NCBI GenBank assembly: GCA_002167285.1
Contig: NHDG01000117.1
Span: 2,188-66,187 of the forward strand
Reading direction: 5' to 3'
Source of the DNA: Planctomycetia bacterium TMED53
Lineage (GTDB): Bacteria; Planctomycetota; UBA8108; UBA1146
DNA length: 64,000 nt
Under the pieces are notes generated by a model. It did no database searches, was not told the DNA's origin, and saw only the letters and a list, made by a program, of their open reading frames with translations. Made by a program: the position numbers and the translations under genes. This document shows positions 32,463-58,548 of the stretch, in pieces. Each line of letters begins with the position of its first letter. Position 1 is the first letter of the stretch.

Positions 32463-34679
32463 TTATCTCGAGGCTTCGAAGAGTATCCCCTGACAACGAA
32501 GAGATTGGGTATCGACCCCAAGGATGAATGCTCCACCCCAAGTCGGGCTGGCCTGTTGGGTGAGTAGGTTTTGCCACGGTTCATGGTCGAGTGATTTACA
32601 CACCCTTTCGAGCAGGCCTGTGACAGGGTCAAAAATGCTCGCCTCTTTGATATCCATGCCGCCGTTATCTCTACCGCCGACGATGAGGACGCGCCCTCCC
32701 GGAAGTGGTGCGATTCCCGGATGAAGTGTTTCTTGAACCAATCGACCTACCGGGACCCACTCCAATAGTAAGTAGCCCCTACCATTGTCTTTGAGTTGCA
32801 AAACGAACCCTGTGCGACAATTGGAAGTTTGATGCGGGGCGAAAGGATCTGGGGTGGGGGGTTTACGTGTTCCCGCAACCAGCAGAGCCGAGCTTTCGTT
32901 GAGACCGGAGTCGATTCCCGGAAGCATTCGTAGACTTCGACGGGGGCCGGGGAGATCGGAATCTGAGCTCATTCTCAAACGTCGAAGGCTACGGGTACCC
33001 CTGCGGATTCGAAATGCTTCCGGTGCAGAGAGCACCCGGCAGTACTCGGCGGTAAATTTGACGTAGGGTGCACCCAGTGAGCCACCGTAGCCGCCATAGA
33101 TGAACAACAGCGGATCCTCCGCATCGGCGAGAAGAACTGAAGCATGTTGGTGGCGAGGATATGCCAACTCTCCGGCCTGATATGATTCTGCCCTGATCGA
33201 GCCGTCTTCAAACGATATGGAATCTTCGAGGATGATCACCTCGATGATTCCGTTTAATTCCCCCTCCAGTCGTCCACCGACGAGAACGATCTCATTTTCG
33301 TCGGCGATCACGTGTGCACTGTGTTCGAACCTGGGAGTGCAGGGCTGACTCATGGCGACCGGAAGAAAACTGGAGTTTTCAGAGTTTTGAACGAAGACTT
33401 CCGCATCATTGCGAACCTGTTTGCCATCCCAGCCACCGAAGAGCAGAACTAAATCATCCGCGGTTCCTGTGATGCCATCTTCGCCAGTCAGAATAGAGGC
33501 GGTGTGTCCCTTTCTGGGGTGCTGCATAGGAATCGGTCCGATATGCCCACCTCTGGGATTGAGGATCCATGCTTCGCCGAGGACTCGGGATTTACCGCTG
33601 GGACTTAAAGTCCTTCCGCCTGCGAGAAGAAATCTTCCTCCAGCGAGCGGTGTCAGTGTGGAGCCTTCCAGGGGAGGGACTCCCGAATCAAGATTCACTG
33701 GACTCCATGGATCGCAGTCTCCTTCAAGATCGACCACATAAGGTGCTGCGACCCCTGCGCCCCTCGAGGTTTGTAACTCGTTTGAAGGGAGGATCGAGGT
33801 TGAGGTGAGAGCCACTCCAGAACTGGAACCTTCATATTTGTACCTTGTGGGATCGGCGACTCCATCGATGGTCAGCATCGGTGAGGCGCCGAGAATCAGC
33901 GACGATTGCATCGAGGGATTGGAGGCGATCCAGCGGGCCGGAAAATTTTGATCGCCGAGGCGGTCCCCTGAGACAGGAAGGCGGATCAAATCGTCTGGTC
34001 CGAGGAAGGTGTCTCCGGGTTGGTGTATATCGACGCCTGTAGAAACCAACTTGTCCCACTCGAGTACCAAGAGGTCTTCCTGATTGACGGTTGAGCTGCC
34101 ATCTGTATCTACCCAGCGTGCACCGATCAGTTGAGCCGGCTCTACGGGGGAGGGGTTGATGACGATGGATTCACTGCTTTTCTTTTTGAATTGTGAGATT
34201 TCTGATTCGGGAAGGATCTGATTCAGGTTCACCGTTAACCTAGCCAGGTCTGCATTGGAGCCTTCTCCTCTAGTCAGCAGTGGAGAGAAGCCAGACTCGA
34301 GATAGATTCGCCATTCATTGAGGCGCTCGCCTTCCTCGATACGGTACTTTCCTTCAACGATATCGGGATGAGAGAATTGGAGCCCACTACTCGAAGGAGC
34401 TGGGAGAAGCATCGGTCTATCGAAGCTTAAAGTTAAAATTCCCTGGAAATCAGAATCGGCGATTTCGCTCGATTCAATTCGTGCGTCGATAATCTGCCAT
34501 GAGTCTGAAGGATTGCAGCCGATCACCGCCAACAAGGTCAGTGACAAGAGAAGCCACGAGATCGTTGATTGACAAAATGCAACAATCACGCAGTGTTGAT
34601 TGGAGTGTTCAGGGTGGCGAGAGGAATCGATCACCGAGATTACTTTCCAGGGTTCAGCCGAGGGCAGGTCTGGGTCCAT
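32463..34679 (-). CDS. Kelch-repeat beta-propeller lipoprotein (large)
   Basis: Lipobox LLAVIGCNPS and repeated Kelch signatures (HPRKGHTASIL..LLFGGWDG, PRFEHSAHVI..VLVGGR, PRHQHASVLL..IYGGYGG, PLPGGRVLIVGGRD). Start uncertain; the longest ORF extends to 34832 and would overlap the upstream gene. Confidence 0.6.
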   Translation of the reverse strand: MDPDLPSAEPWKVISVIDSSRHPEHSNQHCVIVAFCQSTISWLLLSLTLLAVIGCNPSDSWQIIDARIESSEIADSDFQGILTLSFDRPMLLPAPSSSGLQFSHPDIVEGKYRIEEGERLNEWRIYLESGFSPLLTRGEGSNADLARLTVNLNQILPESEISQFKKKSSESIVINPSPVEPAQLIGARWVDTDGSSTVNQEDLLVLEWDKLVSTGVDIHQPGDTFLGPDDLIRLPVSGDRLGDQNFPARWIASNPSMQSSLILGASPMLTIDGVADPTRYKYEGSSSGVALTSTSILPSNELQTSRGAGVAAPYVVDLEGDCDPWSPVNLDSGVPPLEGSTLTPLAGGRFLLAGGRTLSPSGKSRVLGEAWILNPRGGHIGPIPMQHPRKGHTASILTGEDGITGTADDLVLLFGGWDGKQVRNDAEVFVQNSENSSFLPVAMSQPCTPRFEHSAHVIADENEIVLVGGRLEGELNGIIEVIILEDSISFEDGSIRAESYQAGELAYPRHQHASVLLADAEDPLLFIYGGYGGSLGAPYVKFTAEYCRVLSAPEAFRIRRGTRSLRRLRMSSDSDLPGPRRSLRMLPGIDSGLNESSALLVAGTRKPPTPDPFAPHQTSNCRTGFVLQLKDNGRGYLLLEWVPVGRLVQETLHPGIAPLPGGRVLIVGGRDNGGMDIKEASIFDPVTGLLERVCKSLDHEPWQNLLTQQASPTWGGAFILGVDTQSLRCQGILFEASR

Positions 34680-34719
34680 ACGAATGTTGCCCCTCAAGGG
34701 GATTCGGTTCAAGTGGTGA

Positions 34720-35859
34720 TCAGCCGTCGTAGCCGAGTTTTTGCAGTGCGGTGATGATTTCTTGTTGAACCCTGTCAGAGGGATCCACACGGTCTCGGGC
34801 TTGAACCAGGACATTGATGGCTGCAGATCCATCGATGTTCAGAAGTGCTCTCACCGCAGAAATGCGCGTGGAAATGTTTTCGTCCTCCAGCAGGACCCTT
34901 TCGACCACGGGGATCGAATTGACATCCCTGATGCCACCGAGGGCACCGAGGTAGGATTGTCGAACGTAAGGGTTCAGCTCTTCCCCAAGGGCGGTCTCCA
35001 GTGTTTGCGAGTGGTCTTGCCCGCCATTCATTTTGAGGCCGTAGGCTGCGCGTTGGCGCACTCTGAAATGGGACGGATCTCGAAGTAATGCACCGAAGAC
35101 ATCGGTGTTATCGGCTGCACGGTCATGGTGGGTCAATGCTTCAACAAATCGATATCGATGCTGAATCGTATCTTCAGCGAGTGAGTACTCCCTGAGGATC
35201 TCCATCGATAACTCAGTATTTGCAAGTGCCAGGGCATCGATAGTGTGTTTGACTTCGCTCTCTTTATCCACTTCAACTGACCAATGGTAGTGGTCGATCA
35301 ACCCGACCAATGCCTCGTCAGATCCAATCTTGCCTAGCGCTTTGAGAAGAAATCGTCGATTGATGAAATCGGGTTCCTCCTTGAGCATGCCGACCAGCAT
35401 GGGGACATGCTCCGGGCCAAGGCCATCGAGCAGCTCCTGTAGATCACCTCGCGCGCGAGCGACTCGATGGGCGGTGGAAGCATCGAGGGCTTTACTCCAT
35501 TGGCACTTTTGAAACAGCTCAAAGATATCATTGGAGATTTTTTTGTCCTCCGGCGAGAGGGAGTCTAATGCGGAGGGTGAATCGTTCACTTCGGGCCCTG
35601 GTTCACCGATGGGTTCTGGTGAAGGTTTCTGGGGTCCTTCCGCTTTCGGAGTGGGTGACTCTATCGGAGTGGGATCCAAAGGCTTCCACAGTTGTGCAAA
35701 AAACCAGCCGAGGCACAGTAATGCGATAATCGCGACCCATTGCAGGAGGGCATTGCCCGATTCTGAAAGACCAAAAGAGTTAAAAAAGTGAGTCGAAGGG
35801 GAGTGGGCCTCCGATGAGGCTCCGACTCCCTTTCGACTCCACTGATCTTTTCGATTCAT
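34720..35859 (-). CDS. HEAT-repeat protein with an N-terminal membrane anchor
   Basis: TM segment LLQWVAIIALLCLGWFFAQLW and PBS-lyase/HEAT-like repeats (RRFLLKALGKIGSDEAL, VRQRAAYGL, YVRQSYLGALGGIRDVNSIPVV, STRISAVRALLNI). Confidence 0.6.
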   Translation of the reverse strand: MNRKDQWSRKGVGASSEAHSPSTHFFNSFGLSESGNALLQWVAIIALLCLGWFFAQLWKPLDPTPIESPTPKAEGPQKPSPEPIGEPGPEVNDSPSALDSLSPEDKKISNDIFELFQKCQWSKALDASTAHRVARARGDLQELLDGLGPEHVPMLVGMLKEEPDFINRRFLLKALGKIGSDEALVGLIDHYHWSVEVDKESEVKHTIDALALANTELSMEILREYSLAEDTIQHRYRFVEALTHHDRAADNTDVFGALLRDPSHFRVRQRAAYGLKMNGGQDHSQTLETALGEELNPYVRQSYLGALGGIRDVNSIPVVERVLLEDENISTRISAVRALLNIDGSAAINVLVQARDRVDPSDRVQQEIITALQKLGYDG

Positions 35860-35894
35860 GTAACTGATCGGTTCCTGTCCTTACAGTGTAACAA

Positions 35895-37787
35895 CTACGG
35901 CGCAATGATTTCGTTGGTGTTGGGCAACAGAATCACTTCGCAACTGATGGTTGCAGGTTCATCACCATAGTTGGGGAAGTAGCTAACCCCGCCACCGATG
36001 GAGACGACGCGATCGTCAACGGTGTCCAACAGTCCATCTTCACCAGGGATCACACTCAAGGTGTGGAGGCACTTCGCTTGAGCGAGCTGAATCAGAGGGT
36101 CGACAGCGACTCCGAAGTTATCGATGACGTCATCTGTGTAGGACGTATCTACATTGATAAATGTTCCGAAGATACCTGTCGGGTGGGTGATCGGGTTGAT
36201 AGTGGCTGTTGGATCCCAAGGGGGGTCATTCAAGAAGTTGAAGAAGGGGTCGTAGATGGTGACTCCGACCAGTCCATTGCTACAAGTTCCAACCATCGTT
36301 TCTTGGCAACCGTTGGGCGTTGGGAAGTCGAATCCGCCTCCGGCGGTCACTCCAACACCGGTGGTGATCACTTGACCGTTGTAGGTACGACGGGTGTTGA
36401 CCATGACCAAATCCGCTTCACTTCTCGCGAAGGGGCCGCAATTCATGGGATCTGCAACGATGTTTTCAATGTTGTTGGTCAAGCCAGGGGTGTCATTAAA
36501 CACCGTGAAGGTCAATCCGTCGGAGGGGCCAAATCCGGTGAAGGTTGCGACCACCAAATCATTGGCGCCGCCAGCGGTTGGGCAGGCGGGAGCATCATCG
36601 TCACCATTGGCGATCACCAGCAAGTTGGTCATCCCCGGTACGGAAGCGATATCCCCTGCGAGTGGATCGATTTCACCGTCAGGAGGATCGGAGAGGTCAA
36701 ACGCCAGGGTAGAATCGCGGACGACTCCTAGATTCAGCATCGCAGGAGTGTTGACGCGACCCTGCGCGACGATTCCTGCAGCCAGGCGATTGTCACCAGT
36801 AGTCACATCGTAGTATTCAAAGTTCTGAGAGTTGTCGGTGTCATTTTGCCACGGCAGTTTGAACTGGGGTGCAAAGATCGTCGAAAGGGTTTGGAACCCT
36901 CCGGCGTGAAGGATGATGTCATCCGTGGTTCCCAACTCATTGTCGAGGCCACCGAGTGCTCCGGAAGAATGGCCAACGCGTCCACGGGCACTGAGGAACT
37001 CAGCTTCCTGACCTGTCACCGTCAGTGCGGGTGAGAAGGATCTGGAAGCGGGATCGTAGATCTCCATCGACTTCAAGGAAGGGAACACATTGATCGTGAT
37101 CTGGAACCCAGGCTGCCCAGGAGCAAAGTTGGGGTCGATGATCGTTTCATTGCGCGACTCTTGGCCCCCGGCGATCAAGACTTTGCCGTTTGGTAACAAG
37201 GTTGCGGAGTGGCGGAATCGAGGGGTCGCAAGATCTGGGTCGATGGCTAAGGCATCGGGGCCAAACTCACGACTGCCAATATCGTAGATCTCTGAAGTTT
37301 CGTAGGCCTCTGCGAAGAGGGCATCGGCGGTGCCGCCACAGATGAGAACGTTGCCGTCGGGGAGGAGAGTCGCAGTATGGAAGATGCGACCACCTTGGCT
37401 CAGCGTCATGATGTCACCATCGACATCGGTATCGATGAAGTCACCGGAGATGGTGTCCGGGATCGGATCACCGAAATCGACGCCCCCACCTTGGTCGAAA
37501 ATCTCCGCGGTATCGAGGGAAGTGAGGTGACGTTCGTCGGTTCCCCCTGCAACCAAAACGGTTCCATCTCCCAGGACAGTTGCTGTGTGTCCATAACGAG
37601 GGGTGACCATTCCTGGTCCCCGGACCACAGCGTTGTCGTCGAGGAAAGCTGCAGCGTTATTGATATTGGGAATCGCGTCACCGGAACCGTGGCAACCTGT
37701 CAACGACACGACTGCCGCACAGAAGCACAGGAACAGGAGGGGGCTGAATCCAGAGGGATTCGGACGAAGATTTTTGAGAGGGCTCAT
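35895..37787 (-). CDS. Kelch-repeat beta-propeller lipoprotein
   Basis: Lipobox VVSLTGCHGS and Kelch repeats PRYGHTATVLGDGTVLVAGG, RIFHTATLLPDGNVLICGG, PRFRHSATLLPNGKVLIAGG, GRVGHSSGAL..ILHAGG. Confidence 0.7.
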   Translation of the reverse strand: MSPLKNLRPNPSGFSPLLFLCFCAAVVSLTGCHGSGDAIPNINNAAAFLDDNAVVRGPGMVTPRYGHTATVLGDGTVLVAGGTDERHLTSLDTAEIFDQGGGVDFGDPIPDTISGDFIDTDVDGDIMTLSQGGRIFHTATLLPDGNVLICGGTADALFAEAYETSEIYDIGSREFGPDALAIDPDLATPRFRHSATLLPNGKVLIAGGQESRNETIIDPNFAPGQPGFQITINVFPSLKSMEIYDPASRSFSPALTVTGQEAEFLSARGRVGHSSGALGGLDNELGTTDDIILHAGGFQTLSTIFAPQFKLPWQNDTDNSQNFEYYDVTTGDNRLAAGIVAQGRVNTPAMLNLGVVRDSTLAFDLSDPPDGEIDPLAGDIASVPGMTNLLVIANGDDDAPACPTAGGANDLVVATFTGFGPSDGLTFTVFNDTPGLTNNIENIVADPMNCGPFARSEADLVMVNTRRTYNGQVITTGVGVTAGGGFDFPTPNGCQETMVGTCSNGLVGVTIYDPFFNFLNDPPWDPTATINPITHPTGIFGTFINVDTSYTDDVIDNFGVAVDPLIQLAQAKCLHTLSVIPGEDGLLDTVDDRVVSIGGGVSYFPNYGDEPATISCEVILLPNTNEIIAP

Positions 37788-38189
37788 GCGTTCCGTCTCT
37801 TTCCTGGGAAGCAGGTTCTTTCCACTAGTCGAAAACCGGTCTTGCCACTGTTGTCAGCGATCGATACCCATCCTACACAGGAGCGGGTTCCTGGGCTTCA
37901 GATCTCTCGAAATCCCCGCAGAGATCTTTGGCGCAAACAGGTAGAAACCGGGTGGGGGACGGGCAGGTCGGGACTCGAAGAAAGGATGAGGCGGCGCCTC
38001 GCCAGCTTTCCCAACAAGACCGTTTCCCTACAAGCCAGGATTCTAGATCGGCCATTTGCAACTGTCTACCCAAGGCCAGTCTGCTCTTTTGGGTACAGGA
38101 GATGATCCATGCATCTCAATAGGACCATTCTACCCCCCGTGGAGCGCCGATGGCGATCTCGACGAGAGTTGATCCTCTCATGGGAATCA

Positions 38190-38205
38190 TGCAATTGTGG
38201 TGCCA
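38190..38205 (-). promoter_or_regulatory. Sigma54 promoter (consensus match) facing the Kelch-HEAT-Kelch operon
   Basis: The minus strand reads TGGCAC-CACAA-TTGCA, an exact match to TGGCAC-N5-TTGCA. It lies downstream of the gspJ 3' hairpin and about 400 nt upstream of ATG 37787. Confidence 0.7.
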
Positions 38206-38321
38206 AATCGCAAGTGTGTGGAAAATACTCTAATTGCCGATCTAAGCACACTGGAGGTAAGTAATCAAGAAATAGGCGTGCGGAAGTGGCACATTCGTGG
38301 GCTCTCTGTCAAACGAAAACC

Positions 38322-38387
38322 GGGGCCTCCGGTGGCTCGAACCTGGGGATCACGCAATCCGGGTTCTGCCATCCTTCCGGAGGCCCC
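38322..38387 (-). terminator. Terminator-like structure after the gspJ-like gene
   Basis: An 11-bp GC-rich stem, GGGGCCTCCGG / CCGGAGGCCCC (38377-38387 pairs with 38322-38332), encloses 44 nt. On the minus strand it is followed by GGTTTTCGTTT. The large loop makes this atypical. Confidence 0.4.
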
Positions 38388-38398
38388 TCACAAATCGA

Positions 38399-39301
38399 TT
38401 AAAAGTCTCCCAACAACCCTTCTGCCAGCTCCGCTTCAGGATCGGGAAGCAGCACCTGATCCGTGACGATCAGCGGGATCACCGTCGAGAAAACTTCTAC
38501 TAACGGTTCCCCGGAAGGATCGAGGATGCGCCCACGTTCATCGCCGTAGTGCAGGTAGAGCACCACTTGGACCGCTCGGGGGATCGGGATCGGCAGCGGC
38601 TCCTCGGGAATCGGTTCACCGGTTGCGGGGTCGATGTTGTCCGCAGAAGCCGCATTGGAGGCTGCAGCTGCAGCCGCCGCGGGGTCATCGGCAGCAAGAG
38701 CGGCCTCTTCTGCTTCGAGCCGTTCCTCTTCATCAAGGAAGGGGAAGTCGCTCTCATTCACTTCAGGAAGTAGCGAGCTGGAGTCCCAATCGCCGACCCA
38801 GTTATTTTCTGCATCGAGAAAAAGGAAATCCATCGCCTTCATGCGATCGTAGATGGCGGTGCGTTCCCCTGTGTCGAGGGGGTCCAATTCCATATCCCAC
38901 GCGACCCTACGAAAGAGGATGAAATCTCCATCCTTACCGGGTCGTAGTGCGTAGCCGACGGAGCTGACTTCACCGGTCCAGCTGGAAATCGTTTCTTCCG
39001 GTTCGGGGACTGGTGAAGTAGTGAGGAAGTCGATGGTGTCTTCGGCGTTCTCTTCTTCACCACGGCTTTCACCGCGGAAGATTTCCTCACCAAAGCCACG
39101 CCAGATCGTGCCTTGGAGGTCACGGCGCATCTGATTGAGAATCGCTTCACCAACTTTGCCGGTGAGGGTTGCTTCATGAACCCGGCGATCCGCTTCGATG
39201 GTGGTTTCCAAAATTGTGTAACTCGCCAGCATGACGAGCCCGAAGATTCCGAGCACGACGACCAACTCGATGAGGGTGAATCCGTCTGATTTTTGATGCA
39301 T
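38399..39301 (-). CDS. GspJ-like minor pseudopilin
   Basis: Prepilin-type N-terminus (SDGFTLIELVVVLGIFGLVMLA), 300 aa, last gene of the pseudopilin run, with an acidic/Ala-rich C-terminal insertion. Confidence 0.55.
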   Translation of the reverse strand: MHQKSDGFTLIELVVVLGIFGLVMLASYTILETTIEADRRVHEATLTGKVGEAILNQMRRDLQGTIWRGFGEEIFRGESRGEEENAEDTIDFLTTSPVPEPEETISSWTGEVSSVGYALRPGKDGDFILFRRVAWDMELDPLDTGERTAIYDRMKAMDFLFLDAENNWVGDWDSSSLLPEVNESDFPFLDEEERLEAEEAALAADDPAAAAAAASNAASADNIDPATGEPIPEEPLPIPIPRAVQVVLYLHYGDERGRILDPSGEPLVEVFSTVIPLIVTDQVLLPDPEAELAEGLLGDF

Positions 39302-46243: not shown

Positions 46244-46259
46244 AGCAAATCAAATGCCC
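46244..46259 (-). promoter_or_regulatory. Candidate sigma54 (-24/-12) promoter upstream of gspD
   Basis: The minus strand reads GGGCAT-TTGAT-TTGCT, with GG at 46258/46257 and GC at 46246/46245, i.e. canonical spacing. Only the first T of the consensus differs. Confidence 0.55.
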
Positions 46260-46426
46260 GTCCATGGCAACTGGGCAAGTTATCCAACTTTATTTAAATA
46301 AAGGGGTTACGTGATTCCGGTAACCTATTCCTGGTGGCCAATTATCTGATCTGGGGTGTGAAGTGTTGTGAAATCGAACATCTTTGCCAGGAGGGGTTTT
46401 CGTGACGATGCTGGATTATCGGAGGT

Positions 46427-47342: not shown

Positions 47343-49181
47343 TCATTCGACCATGTTCTTCAATCTCGAGTAGAGGGTCGATCTTTCGATTCCAAGGATT
47401 TCAGCAGCCTTCTTTTTGTTTCCACCAGCGTGCTCCAAAACCTTTAAAATATGCTCCTCTTCAAGGACTTTGAGGGAAACAGGTTTCCACTCTCCCTCCG
47501 ACTGAATTGCGGGGTCTTGAGGTAGCAATCGCAAATCGTTGCCTTCAATCAGACCGCCCTCAGAGAAGATCACGGCACTCTCAAGAAGGTTGCGGAGTTC
47601 GCGAACATTTCCGGGGAAAGGGTGTGAATCCAGCAACTCGATCGCTTCGGGGGTGAGTTGTTTTCTCGGTCTGTTCTTGTCGGAAAATTGATCGAGGAAG
47701 TGCTCCGCAAGAAGTGCAATATCTCCACTTCGATCTCTCAACGGCGGAGCCTGAATCTCGAGAACGGCGAGACGGAAGTAGAGATCCTCACGGAATCGAC
47801 CCGCTTCAACTTCTTTTTTGAGGTCGCGATTGGTTGCGGCAATTAATCGAACGTCAACTTCAATGGAGGTGTTACTGCCAACCATTTCGAGGCAACGGGT
47901 TTCCAGTAATCGCAGCATTTTTGATTGGGCTGGCTCGGGAAGTTCGCCAATTTCATCAAGAAACACGGTGCCGCCATCTGCCGCTTCAAACTTACCGATT
48001 TTTTTGCGGTCCGCTCCTGTGAACGCTCCCTTTTCGTGGCCGAAGAGTTCGCTTTCGACAAGATGGGGAGGAATCGCGGCGCAATTGATGGTGACAAATG
48101 GGGCGGCAGATCGAGATCCATGAAAGTGAATCCCCCGCGCGACGAGTTCTTTGCCGGTGCCGGTTTCTCCCATCACCAGGACGGTCCCTTGTGTTGGAGC
48201 TACTTTTTTGATGAATGTGCGGACTTCTTCGATGGCTTGGGAAGAACCGATGATGGGGTGGGTGTTCAGAACTGATTTCACCAGTTCTTCCTTCTCATGA
48301 TGGAGCTCGTCGAGCTCGGCATTGAGAGAGAGCCCTGCACCCATCGTTGCGGCAGCAATGCCACCAGCCCACATCTCCGCTTCACCCAAGGGGCGAGAGT
48401 CTCCATCAATTCGATCGAGGTAGAGAATGCCACTGAGGGATCCCTCGATGAAAATTGGTGCGGCGATCACGCTACGAATTTCATCACCTGTCACACTGCG
48501 GCGGTCTTCAAAACGAGGATCTAAGGAGGTGTCACGAGAAAGAACTGTGCGTCTATTGCGCAACAGTTCCGCAAGGATGGTTTGGCTTAACACGAATCCT
48601 TGCAGTGGCACTCCAATCCGCGACCAAGCAGTTCGGCATAGCCAATGGTCACCTTCTTGGATCAAGATGGCTCCACGATCAGCTTCCACTCCTTCGACTA
48701 ATTTTTGTAATCCTCGATCGAGGCTTTCTGAGTCGGAGAACCCTTCACCAAGAAGGGGGGCGGCTTGATCCAGGGTTTTGAGGATTTGACGAACTTGTTG
48801 ATCCGAGAAGCTACCGGGATCTTCAGTTTTTGAATCCAGGATTTGGGTACGCTCAGGATGATCGGAAAATGTTTCAATCCGTGTTTCGACGATGAGCTCC
48901 GTATCTCCAATACGAATATGCTGACCTGGGAACAACAATTGTTCTTTGATGGGGTCGCCAGAGACAAACGTGCCATTAGAAGAATCGAGATCGGTAACTT
49001 TCCAGCCGGATGAAGTCAAATTGAGAAGAGCGTGAAAGCGGCTGGCTGCGGGGTCACGTAAGCAGATTTCGGCCGATTCATCACGGCCGATGCGAATTCC
49101 GTCTCGACGTGCCAACTCATCACTGATGTCGTATTTTTTTGCGGATTCACCTGGGGAAACGACGTGGACACGAGTCTTCAT
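47343..49181 (-). CDS. Sigma54-dependent transcriptional activator with N-terminal FHA and GAF domains
   Basis: FHA domain (IRIGRDESAEICLRDPAASRFHALL...DLDSSNGTFV), a central GAF-like region, AAA+ domain (GETGTGKE, ESELFGHEKGAFTGA) and a Fis-type HTH (AAEILGIERSTLYSRLK). ATG 49181 overlaps the kinase stop (ATGA). Confidence 0.85.
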   Translation of the reverse strand: MKTRVHVVSPGESAKKYDISDELARRDGIRIGRDESAEICLRDPAASRFHALLNLTSSGWKVTDLDSSNGTFVSGDPIKEQLLFPGQHIRIGDTELIVETRIETFSDHPERTQILDSKTEDPGSFSDQQVRQILKTLDQAAPLLGEGFSDSESLDRGLQKLVEGVEADRGAILIQEGDHWLCRTAWSRIGVPLQGFVLSQTILAELLRNRRTVLSRDTSLDPRFEDRRSVTGDEIRSVIAAPIFIEGSLSGILYLDRIDGDSRPLGEAEMWAGGIAAATMGAGLSLNAELDELHHEKEELVKSVLNTHPIIGSSQAIEEVRTFIKKVAPTQGTVLVMGETGTGKELVARGIHFHGSRSAAPFVTINCAAIPPHLVESELFGHEKGAFTGADRKKIGKFEAADGGTVFLDEIGELPEPAQSKMLRLLETRCLEMVGSNTSIEVDVRLIAATNRDLKKEVEAGRFREDLYFRLAVLEIQAPPLRDRSGDIALLAEHFLDQFSDKNRPRKQLTPEAIELLDSHPFPGNVRELRNLLESAVIFSEGGLIEGNDLRLLPQDPAIQSEGEWKPVSLKVLEEEHILKVLEHAGGNKKKAAEILGIERSTLYSRLKNMVE

Positions 49182-50914
49182 GAGACATCTGCCATGCGCA
49201 ATGCGCGTAATACTCTCTCTCGATCGAGAGCTCCTTGGAGAAGGACCCGATCCACTTTGCTGTTCCAACCGGAGATGTCTCCTTCGAATCTCAAGCCCGG
49301 TGCACCGGAAGGGATCGCATCGACAGGGATACTGAAAACGATCGTCAGGATGTCTGAAGTTTGCTTTTCACCAGCGGTGGAAATCGAAAATTGATATCGT
49401 TGCCGATCTGGGTTTTGCCGATCCAATTTTTCCAACTTCAAATGGTGGTTCACTCCCTCACGGACAACCCCAGTCCGTTGTAAATCTTCGATTTCAACCG
49501 CTACAGGAGATCCTTGTTGCAATACTTCAATTCGTGGAGGTGCCGATCTCCCTACCGGAAGGCTGATGCGCCAACGATTTCCAGGTTGATCGGGGTCACC
49601 GGCGACTTGCAGTTCCAGATCGGGATTACCAAGACAGCGTAAGCCATGGATCTCCCAGCTATCGATCTCCGACATAAATGGAAATGAGACGGTTCTGGAA
49701 TCATTGGCCCAACGCAGTTGACCATCCCTGATCGATAGGGATATGCGCTTTCGCGTAGCCCTCTGGTCTTCGAGAGGGTCCATACGGAAGAACCTCTCGA
49801 GTTCACCATTCTTGAAATCGAAATCGAGAAGATCTTTTGCTCCCTGATGGGCCAATAGGTCGCCGTAATATTCGCTGACCCGTTTGTTGGCTGAGGGGAA
49901 TCCCAACCAGTCTCCTATGCCACCGTTGATCGAGGCGGCCCAGCCGACCACTGTAATCAAGAGGGCAACAGTCGTCGCCGCGATCAGAGAACTACGTGCA
50001 GACTGCTTTTTGCTGGGATCGAGGCGGCTCTCTATCCCTCGCAGGCATTGCAGTACTTCCCGGTAGTTTTGTGGGCGCTGTTTTGGATCCTTCGCCATCA
50101 TGCGGTGGAGGAGGTCATCCAGTTCTGGATCGAGACCTGGTTTCACTTCAGTGACACGTGGAACCGGCGCATTGACATGAGCAATTAGGAGATCCATGCG
50201 CGAGTCTCTGCGGTATGGCGGAGACCCGGTCAGTAGATGGAACAGCGTTGCACCCAGACTGTAAATGTCAGATCTTTCATCGGTCACTGATCCTTGAACC
50301 TGTTCTGGGGAGCAGTATTGCGGAGTTCCTACGACTTCTGTTTCGTCATCCGTGAGTTCTCCAACAGGTCCAGCGAGACCAAAGTCGACCAACTTAATAC
50401 TGTCCCGGGAATCGATGATCAGGTTTGAAGGTTTGATATCACGGTGAATGATTCCTTGATTGCGCGCTTCCTCTAATGCTCGAGAAGCGGCGAGTGCGAC
50501 GCGCAAGACTTCCAGAGTTTCGAGGCATTTTTGTTTTTGTAGTAGTTCCTCAAAACTGGGGCCAGGAAGAAACTCCATCACTAAATAGGGAAGTTCACCG
50601 TCGTCGTGAATTGCGTGAATCTGGCCGATGTTGGGATGGTTGACTGCAGCGATGGCGCGAGCTTCGGCCAAGAATTTTTCACGGATATCGTCATGATCCT
50701 TGAGTCGTGGGTGAACACGTTTGATGGCGACGGTTCTTTGTAGCGATGGATCGTGGGCGCGGTAAACGATTCCCATGCCACCTTCGCCCATCTTCTCTTC
50801 GATGACGAAGTGGCCAATTTTGTCGAAGCTGGGGGTTTGCATCGGTTGGGTGTCACCCGCTGAAAGGCTATCCGAGTCCGGTGTGGCGGGGCTGAGGAGA
50901 ATGTCAGATTTCAT
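49178..50914 (-). CDS. Hanks-type Ser/Thr protein kinase with a TM segment and an extracytoplasmic C-terminal domain
   Basis: Gly loop GEGGMGIVYRA, VAIK Lys, catalytic loop HRDIKPSNL, DFG and GTPQYCSPE motifs. TM segment LIAATTVALLITVVGWA is followed by a domain of about 250 aa of unknown fold. Confidence 0.9.
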   Translation of the reverse strand: MKSDILLSPATPDSDSLSAGDTQPMQTPSFDKIGHFVIEEKMGEGGMGIVYRAHDPSLQRTVAIKRVHPRLKDHDDIREKFLAEARAIAAVNHPNIGQIHAIHDDGELPYLVMEFLPGPSFEELLQKQKCLETLEVLRVALAASRALEEARNQGIIHRDIKPSNLIIDSRDSIKLVDFGLAGPVGELTDDETEVVGTPQYCSPEQVQGSVTDERSDIYSLGATLFHLLTGSPPYRRDSRMDLLIAHVNAPVPRVTEVKPGLDPELDDLLHRMMAKDPKQRPQNYREVLQCLRGIESRLDPSKKQSARSSLIAATTVALLITVVGWAASINGGIGDWLGFPSANKRVSEYYGDLLAHQGAKDLLDFDFKNGELERFFRMDPLEDQRATRKRISLSIRDGQLRWANDSRTVSFPFMSEIDSWEIHGLRCLGNPDLELQVAGDPDQPGNRWRISLPVGRSAPPRIEVLQQGSPVAVEIEDLQRTGVVREGVNHHLKLEKLDRQNPDRQRYQFSISTAGEKQTSDILTIVFSIPVDAIPSGAPGLRFEGDISGWNSKVDRVLLQGALDRERVLRALRMADVS

Positions 50915-55342: not shown

Positions 55343-57124
55343 ATGGGCTCCATGAGTTCCCAATCCATGAGTTCCGAAACGGGATTCTGGAACTTCAGGT
55401 TCAAACTGATTCTGCTGATTGCCCTTTTGATGGCTGGCACCCTTTCGGTGCAGGCGGTCATCCGCAATCACAGCATTCAGGTGATCCTCGATGGCACCGA
55501 AGAGGTCGCTGGCAAGATTGCCAATGAGGCGGCGGAGAAGATTGTGATCGCCACCTCCACCAATGATCCAGCGAGCTGGAATAGTGGAGGGGTTTCCTCC
55601 GCATACTTCCAAAATAACTCCAGGCTATCAAAGACACTGGAGCTGAATGCTCTGGAAATTATGCGTCTGTCAGATGAGATTCGATCTCAGACAAGCGCAC
55701 AAGATTCCACGGGTAGCATGAACCTAGAGGAGACTCTTCTCGATATGGTCGTGGCTTTCCAACCGGACTTGAACAGTTCCGCATACGTCGAAGCTAGAAA
55801 AGTATTGATTGCTCGATCGAACTCCCAAGGAACGACAGTCATTCGTAAAGAAGAATATAAACCTGAAAGATATGGCAAGAGAAAAAGCAGTTCCTCTGCG
55901 AAGAATTTTGGTACTGCTAAAGAGACTTCTTTAACGCTAAGTTTCGCGACCCCTGAGCTCGGTGAAGCCACTGAACAAGTAGAGAATCTTGGTCTTGAAG
56001 AGCCAGCAAATTCTGAGGTTCCATCCATCGGCGACCTCTTCCTTACCACAGAGGCTTCTTCCGTGGAGGGATCCGCTGCAAGTGAAAGTAGTCCTGGAGG
56101 ATTCAGTGGAGACCCGGACAACTTGTCGATCGATCTTAAAGTTCCTCTTCAAGAATTGGCAGAGTTGGTCCGTCAAACTAATGAGCGTGATCTGCTGGCG
56201 ACCCTCTCCGTATTTATGATCGGATTGGCGCTGGCATGGATCCTTGGTAGTCGTCTGGTTAAGCCGGTTACCGAAGTGGTTGAAGGGATGCAAAAAGTCG
56301 CTGCAGGCGACATGAGTGTAAGACTTTCAGAACAGAGGGATGTCGAGTTTGCACTCATTAATGGCCATTTTAATGAAATGGTTCAGCAGTTGGAAAACGC
56401 CCGTTCTATGGAACGGGGACTAGAGCACCGTGAGCGTTTGCAAACGATGGGGGACCTCGCTGCTGGGGTTGCCCACGATATTCGTAATCCCTTGAGTGCG
56501 ATCTCGATGATCGTTGGGCGTCTCGGGTTTGACTATGCACCTACCGATGCCAAAGAGAGAGAAGAGTTTCTGAGTCATACCAAAGACATCAAGGATGAGA
56601 TCGAGAGACTCAACAATCTCGTTTCCGACTTTTTGCAGTTGGCCCAGCCGAACTCTCAGGATTCAAAGCCTTGCCAAGTGGGGGATCTGCTTCAGGAGCT
56701 TCATAGGCTCCTCGACAAAGAGGCCGCCGATCAAAATGTCAGCATCCAGTTAGACATTCAGGAGGATCTATCTCTAACCCGCTGGAATCCTGTCGAAGGA
56801 AAGAGTGCTTTCCTGAATGTGGCGATGAATGCCATCCAGGCGATGCAGTCCACTGGAGGATCATTAACGATTCAAGCGCGAAGTGATGATCACTGGATCG
56901 TCGTGGCCTTTAAAGATGATGGGCCCGGAATCGCCCGCGAGGATTGCGAGCAGGTTCTGCTTCCCTACGTCACTCGCAGACCAGGCGGAACCGGATTGGG
57001 CCTCGCGATCGCTCGCAGGGTTGCTGAGCGTTACGGAGGACGTCTCGAATTGACTTCACAACTCGCTGTCGGTACGGAAGTCCGATTCCTGCTACCCGTT
57101 CTCGATGAGGAGGCCTCGGCATGA
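55343..57124 (+). CDS. Sensor histidine kinase (HAMP-HisKA-HATPase_c)
   Basis: Two TM segments flank a region of about 260 aa. HAMP domain, H-box AAGVAHDIRNPL, G-boxes FKDDGPGI and GGTGLGLAI. ATG 55343 has SD gagagagga; the longest ORF begins at 55322. Confidence 0.85.
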   Translation: MGSMSSQSMSSETGFWNFRFKLILLIALLMAGTLSVQAVIRNHSIQVILDGTEEVAGKIANEAAEKIVIATSTNDPASWNSGGVSSAYFQNNSRLSKTLELNALEIMRLSDEIRSQTSAQDSTGSMNLEETLLDMVVAFQPDLNSSAYVEARKVLIARSNSQGTTVIRKEEYKPERYGKRKSSSSAKNFGTAKETSLTLSFATPELGEATEQVENLGLEEPANSEVPSIGDLFLTTEASSVEGSAASESSPGGFSGDPDNLSIDLKVPLQELAELVRQTNERDLLATLSVFMIGLALAWILGSRLVKPVTEVVEGMQKVAAGDMSVRLSEQRDVEFALINGHFNEMVQQLENARSMERGLEHRERLQTMGDLAAGVAHDIRNPLSAISMIVGRLGFDYAPTDAKEREEFLSHTKDIKDEIERLNNLVSDFLQLAQPNSQDSKPCQVGDLLQELHRLLDKEAADQNVSIQLDIQEDLSLTRWNPVEGKSAFLNVAMNAIQAMQSTGGSLTIQARSDDHWIVVAFKDDGPGIAREDCEQVLLPYVTRRPGGTGLGLAIARRVAERYGGRLELTSQLAVGTEVRFLLPVLDEEASA

Positions 57125-58548
57125 TCGAAATCCTCGGAAAGGTACTGGTTGCAGACGATGAGAGATCACAGAGAGAGATCCTCGTCTCTTCTCTCGAGAA
57201 GAGGGGTTATCAGGTCACCGGCGTAGCCAATTTGAAAGCAGCCATCGACGCGTTTGAGCAGGCACGGGAAGAAGGGGCCCCCTTCCATACAGTGGTTACA
57301 GATCTGCGCATGCCCACTGATAAAGAGGGCCTTGAGCTGCTGGTTCATGTGCGAACTGAAGATCCGCTATGCGAAGTGATTCTGGTGACGGCATACGCCT
57401 CCAGTGATGTGGCGTTTCAATCGGGCGAAGCGCGAGCATTTGCCTTCCTTGAAAAACCGCTCGATTTTGAAAAGACGATTTTCACCATCGATTCTGCCGT
57501 CGAAAAATCACGACTTGCACATGAAAACGCTAACCTTCGTCAGTTGATCCATGGACAAAACAGCTTCTGTGGATTGGTCGGCAAAGAAGAAAGTATGAAG
57601 CACCTTTATCAGTTGATTGAGCGGGTGTCCTCCTCTGATGCGTTGTGCTTGATTCGTGGTGAGAGTGGCACCGGTAAAGAACTGGTGGCGAGGGCTGTTC
57701 ATGATTGCAGTCAGCGAAGCGCTCAACCTTTTGTAGCCATCAACTGCGCGGCAATCCCACCGAATTTGATCGAGAGCGAGCTTTTCGGACACGAAAAGGG
57801 CGCATTTACCGGCGCCTCATCCCGCCGTTCAGGACGTTTTGAAGATGTCGGGAATGGTAGTCTCTTTCTCGACGAGATCGGTGCGATGGCGCTCGAACTT
57901 CAACCGAAACTTCTTCGAGCCCTCCAGGAGATGGAGTTTTCTCGTGTGGGGTCAGTAGAAACGATCCCCTTTAACGGTCGGATCATCGCGGCAACAGCAA
58001 GAGATCTCGAAGAAGCGGTTCAGCAAGAAGAGTTTCGTGAGGATCTGTTTTTCCGCTTGAACGTGGTCGTTCTCGATATTCCGCCTTTGCGCGAAAGAAA
58101 AGGTGACCTATCACTCTTGGTGGATCACTTCATCGCCAAGGGGCGTTTACGTCACAACAGGGATTTCGAGGGCGTGACTCCGGAGGTGATGGATGCCTTC
58201 GAGAGCCATAGTTGGCCCGGCAATGTTCGCGAGTTGGAAAATTGCCTCGAACGGATGATGGTGCTCACAGAAGATTCCCTCTTGGATGCCAAGCTGTTGC
58301 CTCCGGGTCTGAAAAACTCTCAGAGTGGCGTAAAGATTGACGAAGAGAGTCATTTTTCACTGCCCTCGGAAGGACTAGTCCTCGAAGATTTGGAAAAGGA
58401 CCTCATCTTACAGGCCCTTCTTCGCTCCGATGGAAAACTGGAACCCGCGGCGAGAATGCTAGGGATCACCTACAAGACCCTTCAATACCGCATCAAGAAG
58501 TATGGACTGAGGGAAACTTCGGACGGAGTGGGTCATGAAAAAGAATAA
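57121..58548 (+). CDS. NtrC-family sigma54-dependent response regulator (REC-AAA+-Fis HTH)
   Basis: REC domain with phospho-acceptor context VVTDLRMP, AAA+ motifs GESGTGKE and ESELFGHEKGAFTGA, and HTH AARMLGITYKTLQYRIKKYG. The ATG overlaps the kinase stop. Confidence 0.9.
   Translation: MIEILGKVLVADDERSQREILVSSLEKRGYQVTGVANLKAAIDAFEQAREEGAPFHTVVTDLRMPTDKEGLELLVHVRTEDPLCEVILVTAYASSDVAFQSGEARAFAFLEKPLDFEKTIFTIDSAVEKSRLAHENANLRQLIHGQNSFCGLVGKEESMKHLYQLIERVSSSDALCLIRGESGTGKELVARAVHDCSQRSAQPFVAINCAAIPPNLIESELFGHEKGAFTGASSRRSGRFEDVGNGSLFLDEIGAMALELQPKLLRALQEMEFSRVGSVETIPFNGRIIAATARDLEEAVQQEEFREDLFFRLNVVVLDIPPLRERKGDLSLLVDHFIAKGRLRHNRDFEGVTPEVMDAFESHSWPGNVRELENCLERMMVLTEDSLLDAKLLPPGLKNSQSGVKIDEESHFSLPSEGLVLEDLEKDLILQALLRSDGKLEPAARMLGITYKTLQYRIKKYGLRETSDGVGHEKE

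Follow-up and report, generated by a model that had tools for sequence, protein, structure and literature searches.

A functional sigma-54 (RpoN) promoter very probably (roughly 0.85) drives a Kelch-HEAT-Kelch operon in the window, the whole 64-kb stretch of planctomycete DNA that was analysed. The site, TGGCACCACAATTGCA, is found on the minus strand at 38190-38205, in an intergenic region and 418 nt 5' of the first Kelch gene. The operon (32463..37787, minus strand) was found with Pfam to encode a Kelch protein with an N-terminal signal-like sequence (35895-37787), a HEAT-repeat protein (34720-35859), and a second Kelch protein (32463-34832). Neither the organism nor its relatives, all marine Planctomycetota, have been cultured, and they are represented solely by metagenome-assembled genomes (MAGs).

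The sigma-54 site and its conservation

On the minus strand, positions 38206-38188 read TTGGCACCACAATTGCATG. The site is laid out as TT-TGGCAC-CACAA-TTGCA-TG, with TGGCAC at 38205-38200 and TTGCA at 38194-38190. The sequence-only reading had described an exact sigma-54 consensus, and every specified position of TGGCAC-N5-TTGCA is indeed matched at 38205-38190. In the promoter as annotated here (TTGGCAC-CACAA-TTGCA, 38190..38206, minus strand), the GG dinucleotide of the -24 element occupies 38204-38203 and the GC dinucleotide of the -12 element occupies 38192-38191, so that the two are 10 nt apart inside TGGCAC-N5-TTGC. When the C at 38191 is taken as -12, transcription is predicted to start near 38179, which would give the transcript a ~392-nt leader. 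The genes on either side of the site are the last pseudopilin gene (38399-39301) and the first Kelch gene (35895-37787), which lie 611 nt apart, and the site is oriented toward the Kelch gene, as had been claimed.

In the 64-kb window this is the sole exact match to TGGCAC-N5-TTGCA, where shuffled sequences lead one to expect 0.02. Counts were then extended to the 2.98-Mb MAG assembly (83% complete), using for the intergenic statistics a crude gene call that assigns 92% of the sequence as coding and ~8% as non-coding. At this scale the exact pattern is not rare, with 3 matches against ~1.5 expected, and among the spacings of TGGCAC-Nx-TTGC, x=5 does not stand out as more frequent. Therefore, the bare match is not significant alone. 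The location of the sites is more informative. Across the genome, 6/7 sites with the pattern TGGCAC-N5-TTGC are intergenic, compared with 5/75 at wrong spacings. Sites were also scored with a heuristic position weight matrix (PWM), which was built from published consensus frequencies and serves as a ranking device only. Eleven of the 21 sites scoring at least 15 are intergenic (binomial p = 1.6e-7), and most of these face a gene start no more than 300 nt away. Together, the intergenic bias in the N5 counts and in the PWM scores indicates that this organism uses the canonical sigma-54 motif. The Kelch-operon site has the fifth-highest PWM score in the genome, and its distance of 418 nt from the start codon is unusually long compared with 40-300 nt at the other high-scoring sites.

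Other sites from this search were recorded as well. The top-scoring ones elsewhere in the assembly (genome G000) are C96:93459-93474 (-), C110:2596-2611 (-), C49:6998-7013 (+), and C8:3546-3561 (+), and they are followed by genes for an ECF sigma factor, a family-2 glycosyltransferase, an HNH endonuclease, and a 647-aa protein without a Pfam domain, respectively. A second exact TGGCAC-N5-TTGCA was found at G000:C123:44685-44700 (+), between two convergent genes and with no gene start in the 3 kb downstream. It could be the promoter of a small RNA, the promoter of a missed small gene, or a chance occurrence.

Kelch orthologues were found in 40/41 related genomes, always after pseudopilin genes. 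At the family level, all 17 loci for which upstream sequence was available (17/17) contain TTGGCAC-N5-(T/A)TGC 241-436 nt before the Kelch start. A footprint alignment of eight lineages of the family showed that all 10 specified positions are invariant (7/7 in TTGGCAC and 3/3 in TGC). Among the same eight lineages none of the six positions between them, that is the N5 and the T/A, is invariant (0/6). Invariant columns number only 1/81 in the 40-nt flanks on each side and 86/611 in the entire intergenic region. This -24/-12 island is conserved across genera whose Kelch proteins are only 56-70% identical. With three exact matches seen and about half that number expected per genome, a chance match without function could be proposed; however, conservation of the island despite such divergence of the protein, together with the far more frequent intergenic placement of correctly spaced sites, makes this extremely improbable. 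The site is thus real by its position and conservation rather than by the bare match.

Further from the family, order-level relatives were found to have weaker sites which keep GG-N10-GC, such as TGGCGC-N5-TTGCT and GTGGCAT-N5-TTGCT. A good sigma-54 site was not found upstream of the first Kelch gene in the class-level locus L054 of G036, from which it follows that the promoter may have been acquired at the order level. A good site was likewise not found upstream of the Kelch gene in L058 of G008, a member of the same family.

Other elements of the intergenic region

The promoter is accompanied by a dyad of 17 bp, TGTGCCACTTCCGCACG, which has the form TGT-N11-AC(A/G), is found at 38277..38293, and is kept in 17/17 family loci. 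Its consensus is TGTGYCA-N3-NCGCAC(A/G), and its midpoint lies ~106 nt ahead of the predicted start, on the upstream side. TGTGYCA-N3-NCGCAC occurs once in the genome. From the start of the dyad to the T at -26 the distance is 64-99 nt in all 17 family loci, and in order-level relatives the dyad precedes the GG-N10-GC site by 94-123 nt, the arrangement of dyad and then site being kept in six relatives. Like an upstream activator sequence (UAS), the element is dyad-symmetric, lies in the range of ~80-150 nt upstream of the promoter, and is co-conserved with it. Most sigma-54 promoters are found within 100 nt of an activator site (PMC4641369), and both the position and the form of the dyad are as expected for an activator binding site, which makes it a candidate enhancer. 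The dyad-to-promoter distances fall at 64-65, 86-88, and 99 nt; helical phasing is suggested by these values, but few of them are independent. Two other roles were considered for the dyad. It is not a small terminator, as other lineages lack a T-rich tail. A divergent plus-strand sigma-54 promoter starting from its TGGCAC half was also rejected, as it would have its GC in the wrong place and conservation is lacking in the -12 region.

The hexamer TTGACA is conserved 13 nt upstream of the dyad (38307..38312). It resembles a -35 element, a role which was rejected because no -10 element follows it and because other lineages have it in reverse-complemented form (TGTCAA in loci L020, L059, and L063). 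This flipped orientation is rather that of a protein-binding site, and it suggests that the hexamer is an orientation-free half-site for a protein.

Directly after the pseudopilin stop codon there is a structured, terminator-like element (38311..38387, minus strand). It consists of a 66-nt structure (38322-38387, minus strand), in which an outer 11-bp GC stem (38377-38387 paired with 38322-38332) encloses an invariant inner hairpin, followed by a U-tract at 38311-38319. The inner hairpin, GGATTGCGTGATCC, is located at 38347-38360, and the 44-nt interior contains the invariant hairpin GGAUUGCGUGAUCC. The element has a minimum free energy of -45.1 kcal/mol (z = -3.7). Within the family one compensatory pair was found, and in three loci of family f2 the outer stem is wholly replaced while the core is kept. 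A scan of 37000-39000 against Rfam (E up to 1) gave no relevant match. The 13-nt core, TTGCGTGATCCYC, was found 64 times in 29/34 genomes of the order, compared with 1 match in 34 for a reversed control, and most genomes of the order contain 2-5 copies. The second copy in this genome (G000:C118:6573-6620, minus strand) is antisense and is flanked by two genes whose products are secreted repeat proteins, both with dockerin-like C-terminal sequences.

The sequence-only reading had placed the promoter after a terminator-like hairpin and had proposed a separate transcription unit for the Kelch genes. The likeness to a terminator stood, since a GC-rich stem is followed by the U-tract GGUUUUCGUUU as in intrinsic terminators. 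The element does not have the short, unconstrained loop (3-8 nt) of an intrinsic terminator, having instead the 44-nt interior with its invariant hairpin. A plain terminator is therefore not an adequate description; judged from its conserved, covarying structure, the element is more than that. It probably terminates the secretion operon, and this in turn backs the Kelch operon as a separate transcription unit.

Downstream of the sigma-54 site a sigma-70-type promoter, TAGACA-N17-TAGAAT, was found at 38040..38068 (minus strand), ~110 nt beyond the predicted sigma-54 start. It matches the TTGACA and TATAAT hexamers at 10/12 positions with a 17-nt spacer, and it would produce a second, shorter leader of ~245 nt. 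The pattern T[AG]GACA-N17-TA[GC]AAT is present in 17/17 loci with an invariant 17-nt spacer, which makes it as conserved as the sigma-54 site, and a sigma-70-like block also follows the GG-N10-GC site in 3/6 order-level relatives (L036, L059, and L063). Relaxed sigma-70 patterns were intergenic in 5/8 cases. Because this equally conserved promoter lies between the sigma-54 site and the gene, sigma-54 is probably not the only source of operon transcripts, and its contribution may be limited to certain conditions. The alignments thus point to a Kelch operon which probably has tandem promoters, one sigma-54 and one sigma-70-type.

The same observations could be explained if sigma-54 holoenzyme bound the site but rarely or never initiated there, acting as a roadblock or insulator that keeps transcripts of the secretion operon from reading through and leaving transcription to the sigma-70-type promoter at 38040-38068. 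The equal conservation of the two promoters and the unusual distance of the sigma-54 site from the gene would fit this idea. Moreover, non-productive sigma-54 binding sites exist in E. coli (PMC4591121) and an insulating role has been proposed for sigma-54 promoter regions (bioRxiv 10.1101/086108). However, a strong terminator-like structure already lies upstream of the site, and unless activation occurs it is difficult to see why a dyad should be conserved at enhancer distance. A roadblock is therefore improbable, and an initiating sigma-54 promoter is preferred.

The predicted sigma-54 transcript would begin with a 392-nt leader (37788..38179, minus strand), which ends with the SD-like sequence GGAAAGAG (37797-37804) before the ATG. 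A conserved ORF was not found in the leader, where alignment lengths differ by non-multiples of 3, and its folding is unexceptional (z = -0.14). Conservation in the region is lowest between the two promoters, where the distance from the T at -26 to the -35 element varies from 60 to 143 nt. In this genus the predicted start and the sigma-70-like -35 element are ~110 nt apart, and on this ground the promoter could be proposed to yield a short non-coding RNA or a leader peptide from 38179-38070 in place of Kelch mRNA. This is highly improbable, as the stretch concerned is both poorly conserved and variable in length and has neither a terminator nor a conserved ORF. A small ORF or sRNA between the promoters was rejected as a feature on the same variation in length and sequence. 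With nothing found there to end transcription or to be translated, the sigma-54 transcript should reach the Kelch gene.

Candidate activator and the secretin control region

The sigma-54 machinery was found in the genome. The presence of rpoN, which had been named as a point to confirm, is borne out by two copies, each with an RpoN box (SRRTVTKYR and ARRTVSKYR) and a PF04552 match (179 and 177 bits). The paralogues are full length and are located at G000:C91:24240-25805 (+) and G000:C96:120449-121852 (-), encoding 521 and 467 aa. In addition, the genome contains 12 genes with strong PF00158 matches, the mark of sigma-54 activators, and two genes of the HU/IHF family.

Two of the activators are encoded in the window, as the sequence-only reading had stated, and both were recovered with Pfam. 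One is an FHA-GAF-AAA+-HTH protein with the GAFTGA motif in its sequence (47343..49181, minus strand), ~9 kb upstream of the promoter. Its start is overlapped by the stop codon of a gene for a Hanks-type Ser/Thr kinase, identified by Pfam (49178..50914, minus strand). The other is an NtrC-type response regulator (57121..58548, plus strand), an alternative candidate. On the minus strand the genes occur in the order kinase, activator, Secretin_N protein, secretin, GspE, GspF, GspG, three pseudopilins, the intergenic region, Kelch, HEAT, and Kelch. The order of kinase, activator, secretion genes, and Kelch is complete in 11/14 family or order loci, the other three having sequence missing at one end, and it recurs in complete or partial form in class-level relatives. 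The FHA-GAF activator keeps its synteny with these secretion and Kelch genes at every locus where the available sequence extends that far.

A second sigma-54-type control region lies upstream of the secretin gene (46244..46380, minus strand) and is conserved across 12 family loci. It contains GGGCAT-N5-TTGC at 46244-46259 and, ~120 nt before this site, the dyad TGTTCGATTTCACAACA at 46364-46380, of the form TGT-N11-ACA (TGTTCRA-N7-ACA). In the class-level locus L056 the same type of dyad is found 126 nt before a perfect TTGGCACGGCCCTTGCT. The blocks conserved in the family across 46244-46420 (minus strand) are the TGT-N11-ACA dyad, CACCCCAGATCAG, a dyad formed by GTTACCGGAAT..GTAAC, AAATAAAGTTG..AACTT, and the sigma-54-type site GGACGGGCAT-N5-TTTGC. 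Constraint here is far denser than in the Kelch control region. The Kelch dyad (TGTGYCA..CGCACA) and the secretin dyad (TGTTCRA..ACA) have in common a 17-bp TGT-N11-ACA frame only, and their interiors differ.

From these features a mechanism can be proposed. Sigma-54 RNA polymerase would bind TTGGCAC-N5-TTGC as a closed complex, and an AAA+ activator bound to the dyad TGTGCCACTTCCGCACG would loop over and open the complex through ATP hydrolysis, with initiation expected near 38179. The FHA-GAF-AAA+-HTH protein is the most likely activator, a role to which it is assigned with slightly more confidence than doubt on the basis of conserved synteny. Its FHA domain would presumably read phosphorylation by the adjacent Ser/Thr kinase. 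This pair probably also controls the sigma-54-type promoter of the secretin gene, where the dyad likewise has the form TGT-N11-ACA. The sigma-70-type promoter inside the leader would allow expression independent of the activator.

It is possible, if less probable, that the promoter is real and that the dyad is bound by another sigma-54 activator, for example the NtrC-type protein at 57121-58548. There are twelve strong candidates in the genome, the interior of the Kelch dyad differs from that of the secretin dyad, which adjoins the FHA-GAF gene, and a dyad found once in the genome is what would be expected of a dedicated regulator. On the other hand, no activator other than the FHA-GAF protein was seen alongside the Kelch control region at the loci where available sequence extends that far, both dyads have the 17-bp TGT-N11-ACA frame, and the NtrC-type gene precedes an envelope gene set of its own. 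The FHA-GAF protein is therefore kept as the preferred activator of the Kelch promoter. A single activator might serve both the Kelch and the secretin dyads, although these share just their outer frame, and each of the remaining 11 activators is a possible alternative at the Kelch promoter.

A wider scheme is put forward tentatively. The kinase and the FHA-GAF activator may form one phospho-threonine-gated sigma-54 regulon, in which two TGT-N11-ACA enhancers would control the secretion machine and the Kelch module, while the sigma-70-type promoter and the RNA element at the junction would add further layers in the form of two leader isoforms and controlled read-through. If true, this would be a checkpoint on a machine plus its cargo, a kind undescribed for type II secretion-like systems.

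Comparison with known sigma-54 systems

Among the classical sigma-54 promoters that have an activator dyad upstream are glnAp2, activated by NtrC, and nifH, activated by NifA, with a UAS of the form TGT-N10-ACA. As in these promoters, the Kelch site has GG and GC at -24 and -12 with the exact spacing and a dyad ~100 nt upstream. The associated factors are also alike, with a GAFTGA activator containing a Fis-type HTH and with HU/IHF-family proteins available. Unlike NtrC and NifA promoters, the dyad frame here is TGT-N11-ACA, and one clear dyad is accompanied by an orientation-free hexamer. The targets are Kelch and HEAT envelope proteins rather than nitrogen genes. Moreover, the sigma-70-type promoter is located downstream of the sigma-54 promoter, whereas at glnA it is upstream.

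Sigma-54 promoters dependent on PilR control type IV pilin genes in Pseudomonas and Myxococcus. The Kelch promoter is similar in that sigma-54 would control genes tied to a machine of the type IV filament family. In PilR systems, however, the input is a histidine kinase with a receiver domain and the major pilin is regulated, whereas here the input would be a Ser/Thr kinase with an FHA domain and the regulated gene is Kelch.

Myxococcus xanthus has enhancer-binding proteins with FHA domains (Jelsbak, Givskov and Kaiser 2005, cited in PMC12288465), and the activator described here likewise has an FHA input domain, which implies control by Ser/Thr kinases. Unlike the M. xanthus proteins, it also has a GAF domain and belongs to a kinase-activator cassette that is fixed next to a type II secretion-like locus. 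The predicted targets differ too, being developmental genes in M. xanthus and here the secretion machine and neighbouring Kelch genes, in a system known from sequence. For Planctomycetia, sigma-54 regulons have been computed, with sites upstream of secretion-related genes including the pseudopilin COG2165 (PMC12316311). Neither this locus and its Kelch operon nor the enhancer dyad and the tandem promoters are described in that survey.

Some particulars are new, although not surprising, namely Kelch genes as targets, sigma-54 and sigma-70-type promoters in tandem, and a kinase-FHA input next to a type II secretion-like locus. The analysis provides concrete, testable wiring for a secretion-associated module of abundant uncultured marine Planctomycetota, comprising a promoter, an enhancer, a candidate activator, and a candidate kinase, and it finds the canonical sigma-54 motif in use in this lineage. 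Sigma-54 of E. coli recognises the same consensus, so that the circuit could be rebuilt in a heterologous host, offering a route to the signal that turns on the machinery without culturing. Since the element is of an expected kind, the gain is in annotation and testability rather than in a new principle. It is best read as an element of an ordinary kind in a little-studied group, one which would work like the sigma-54 promoters of the NtrC and NifA type.
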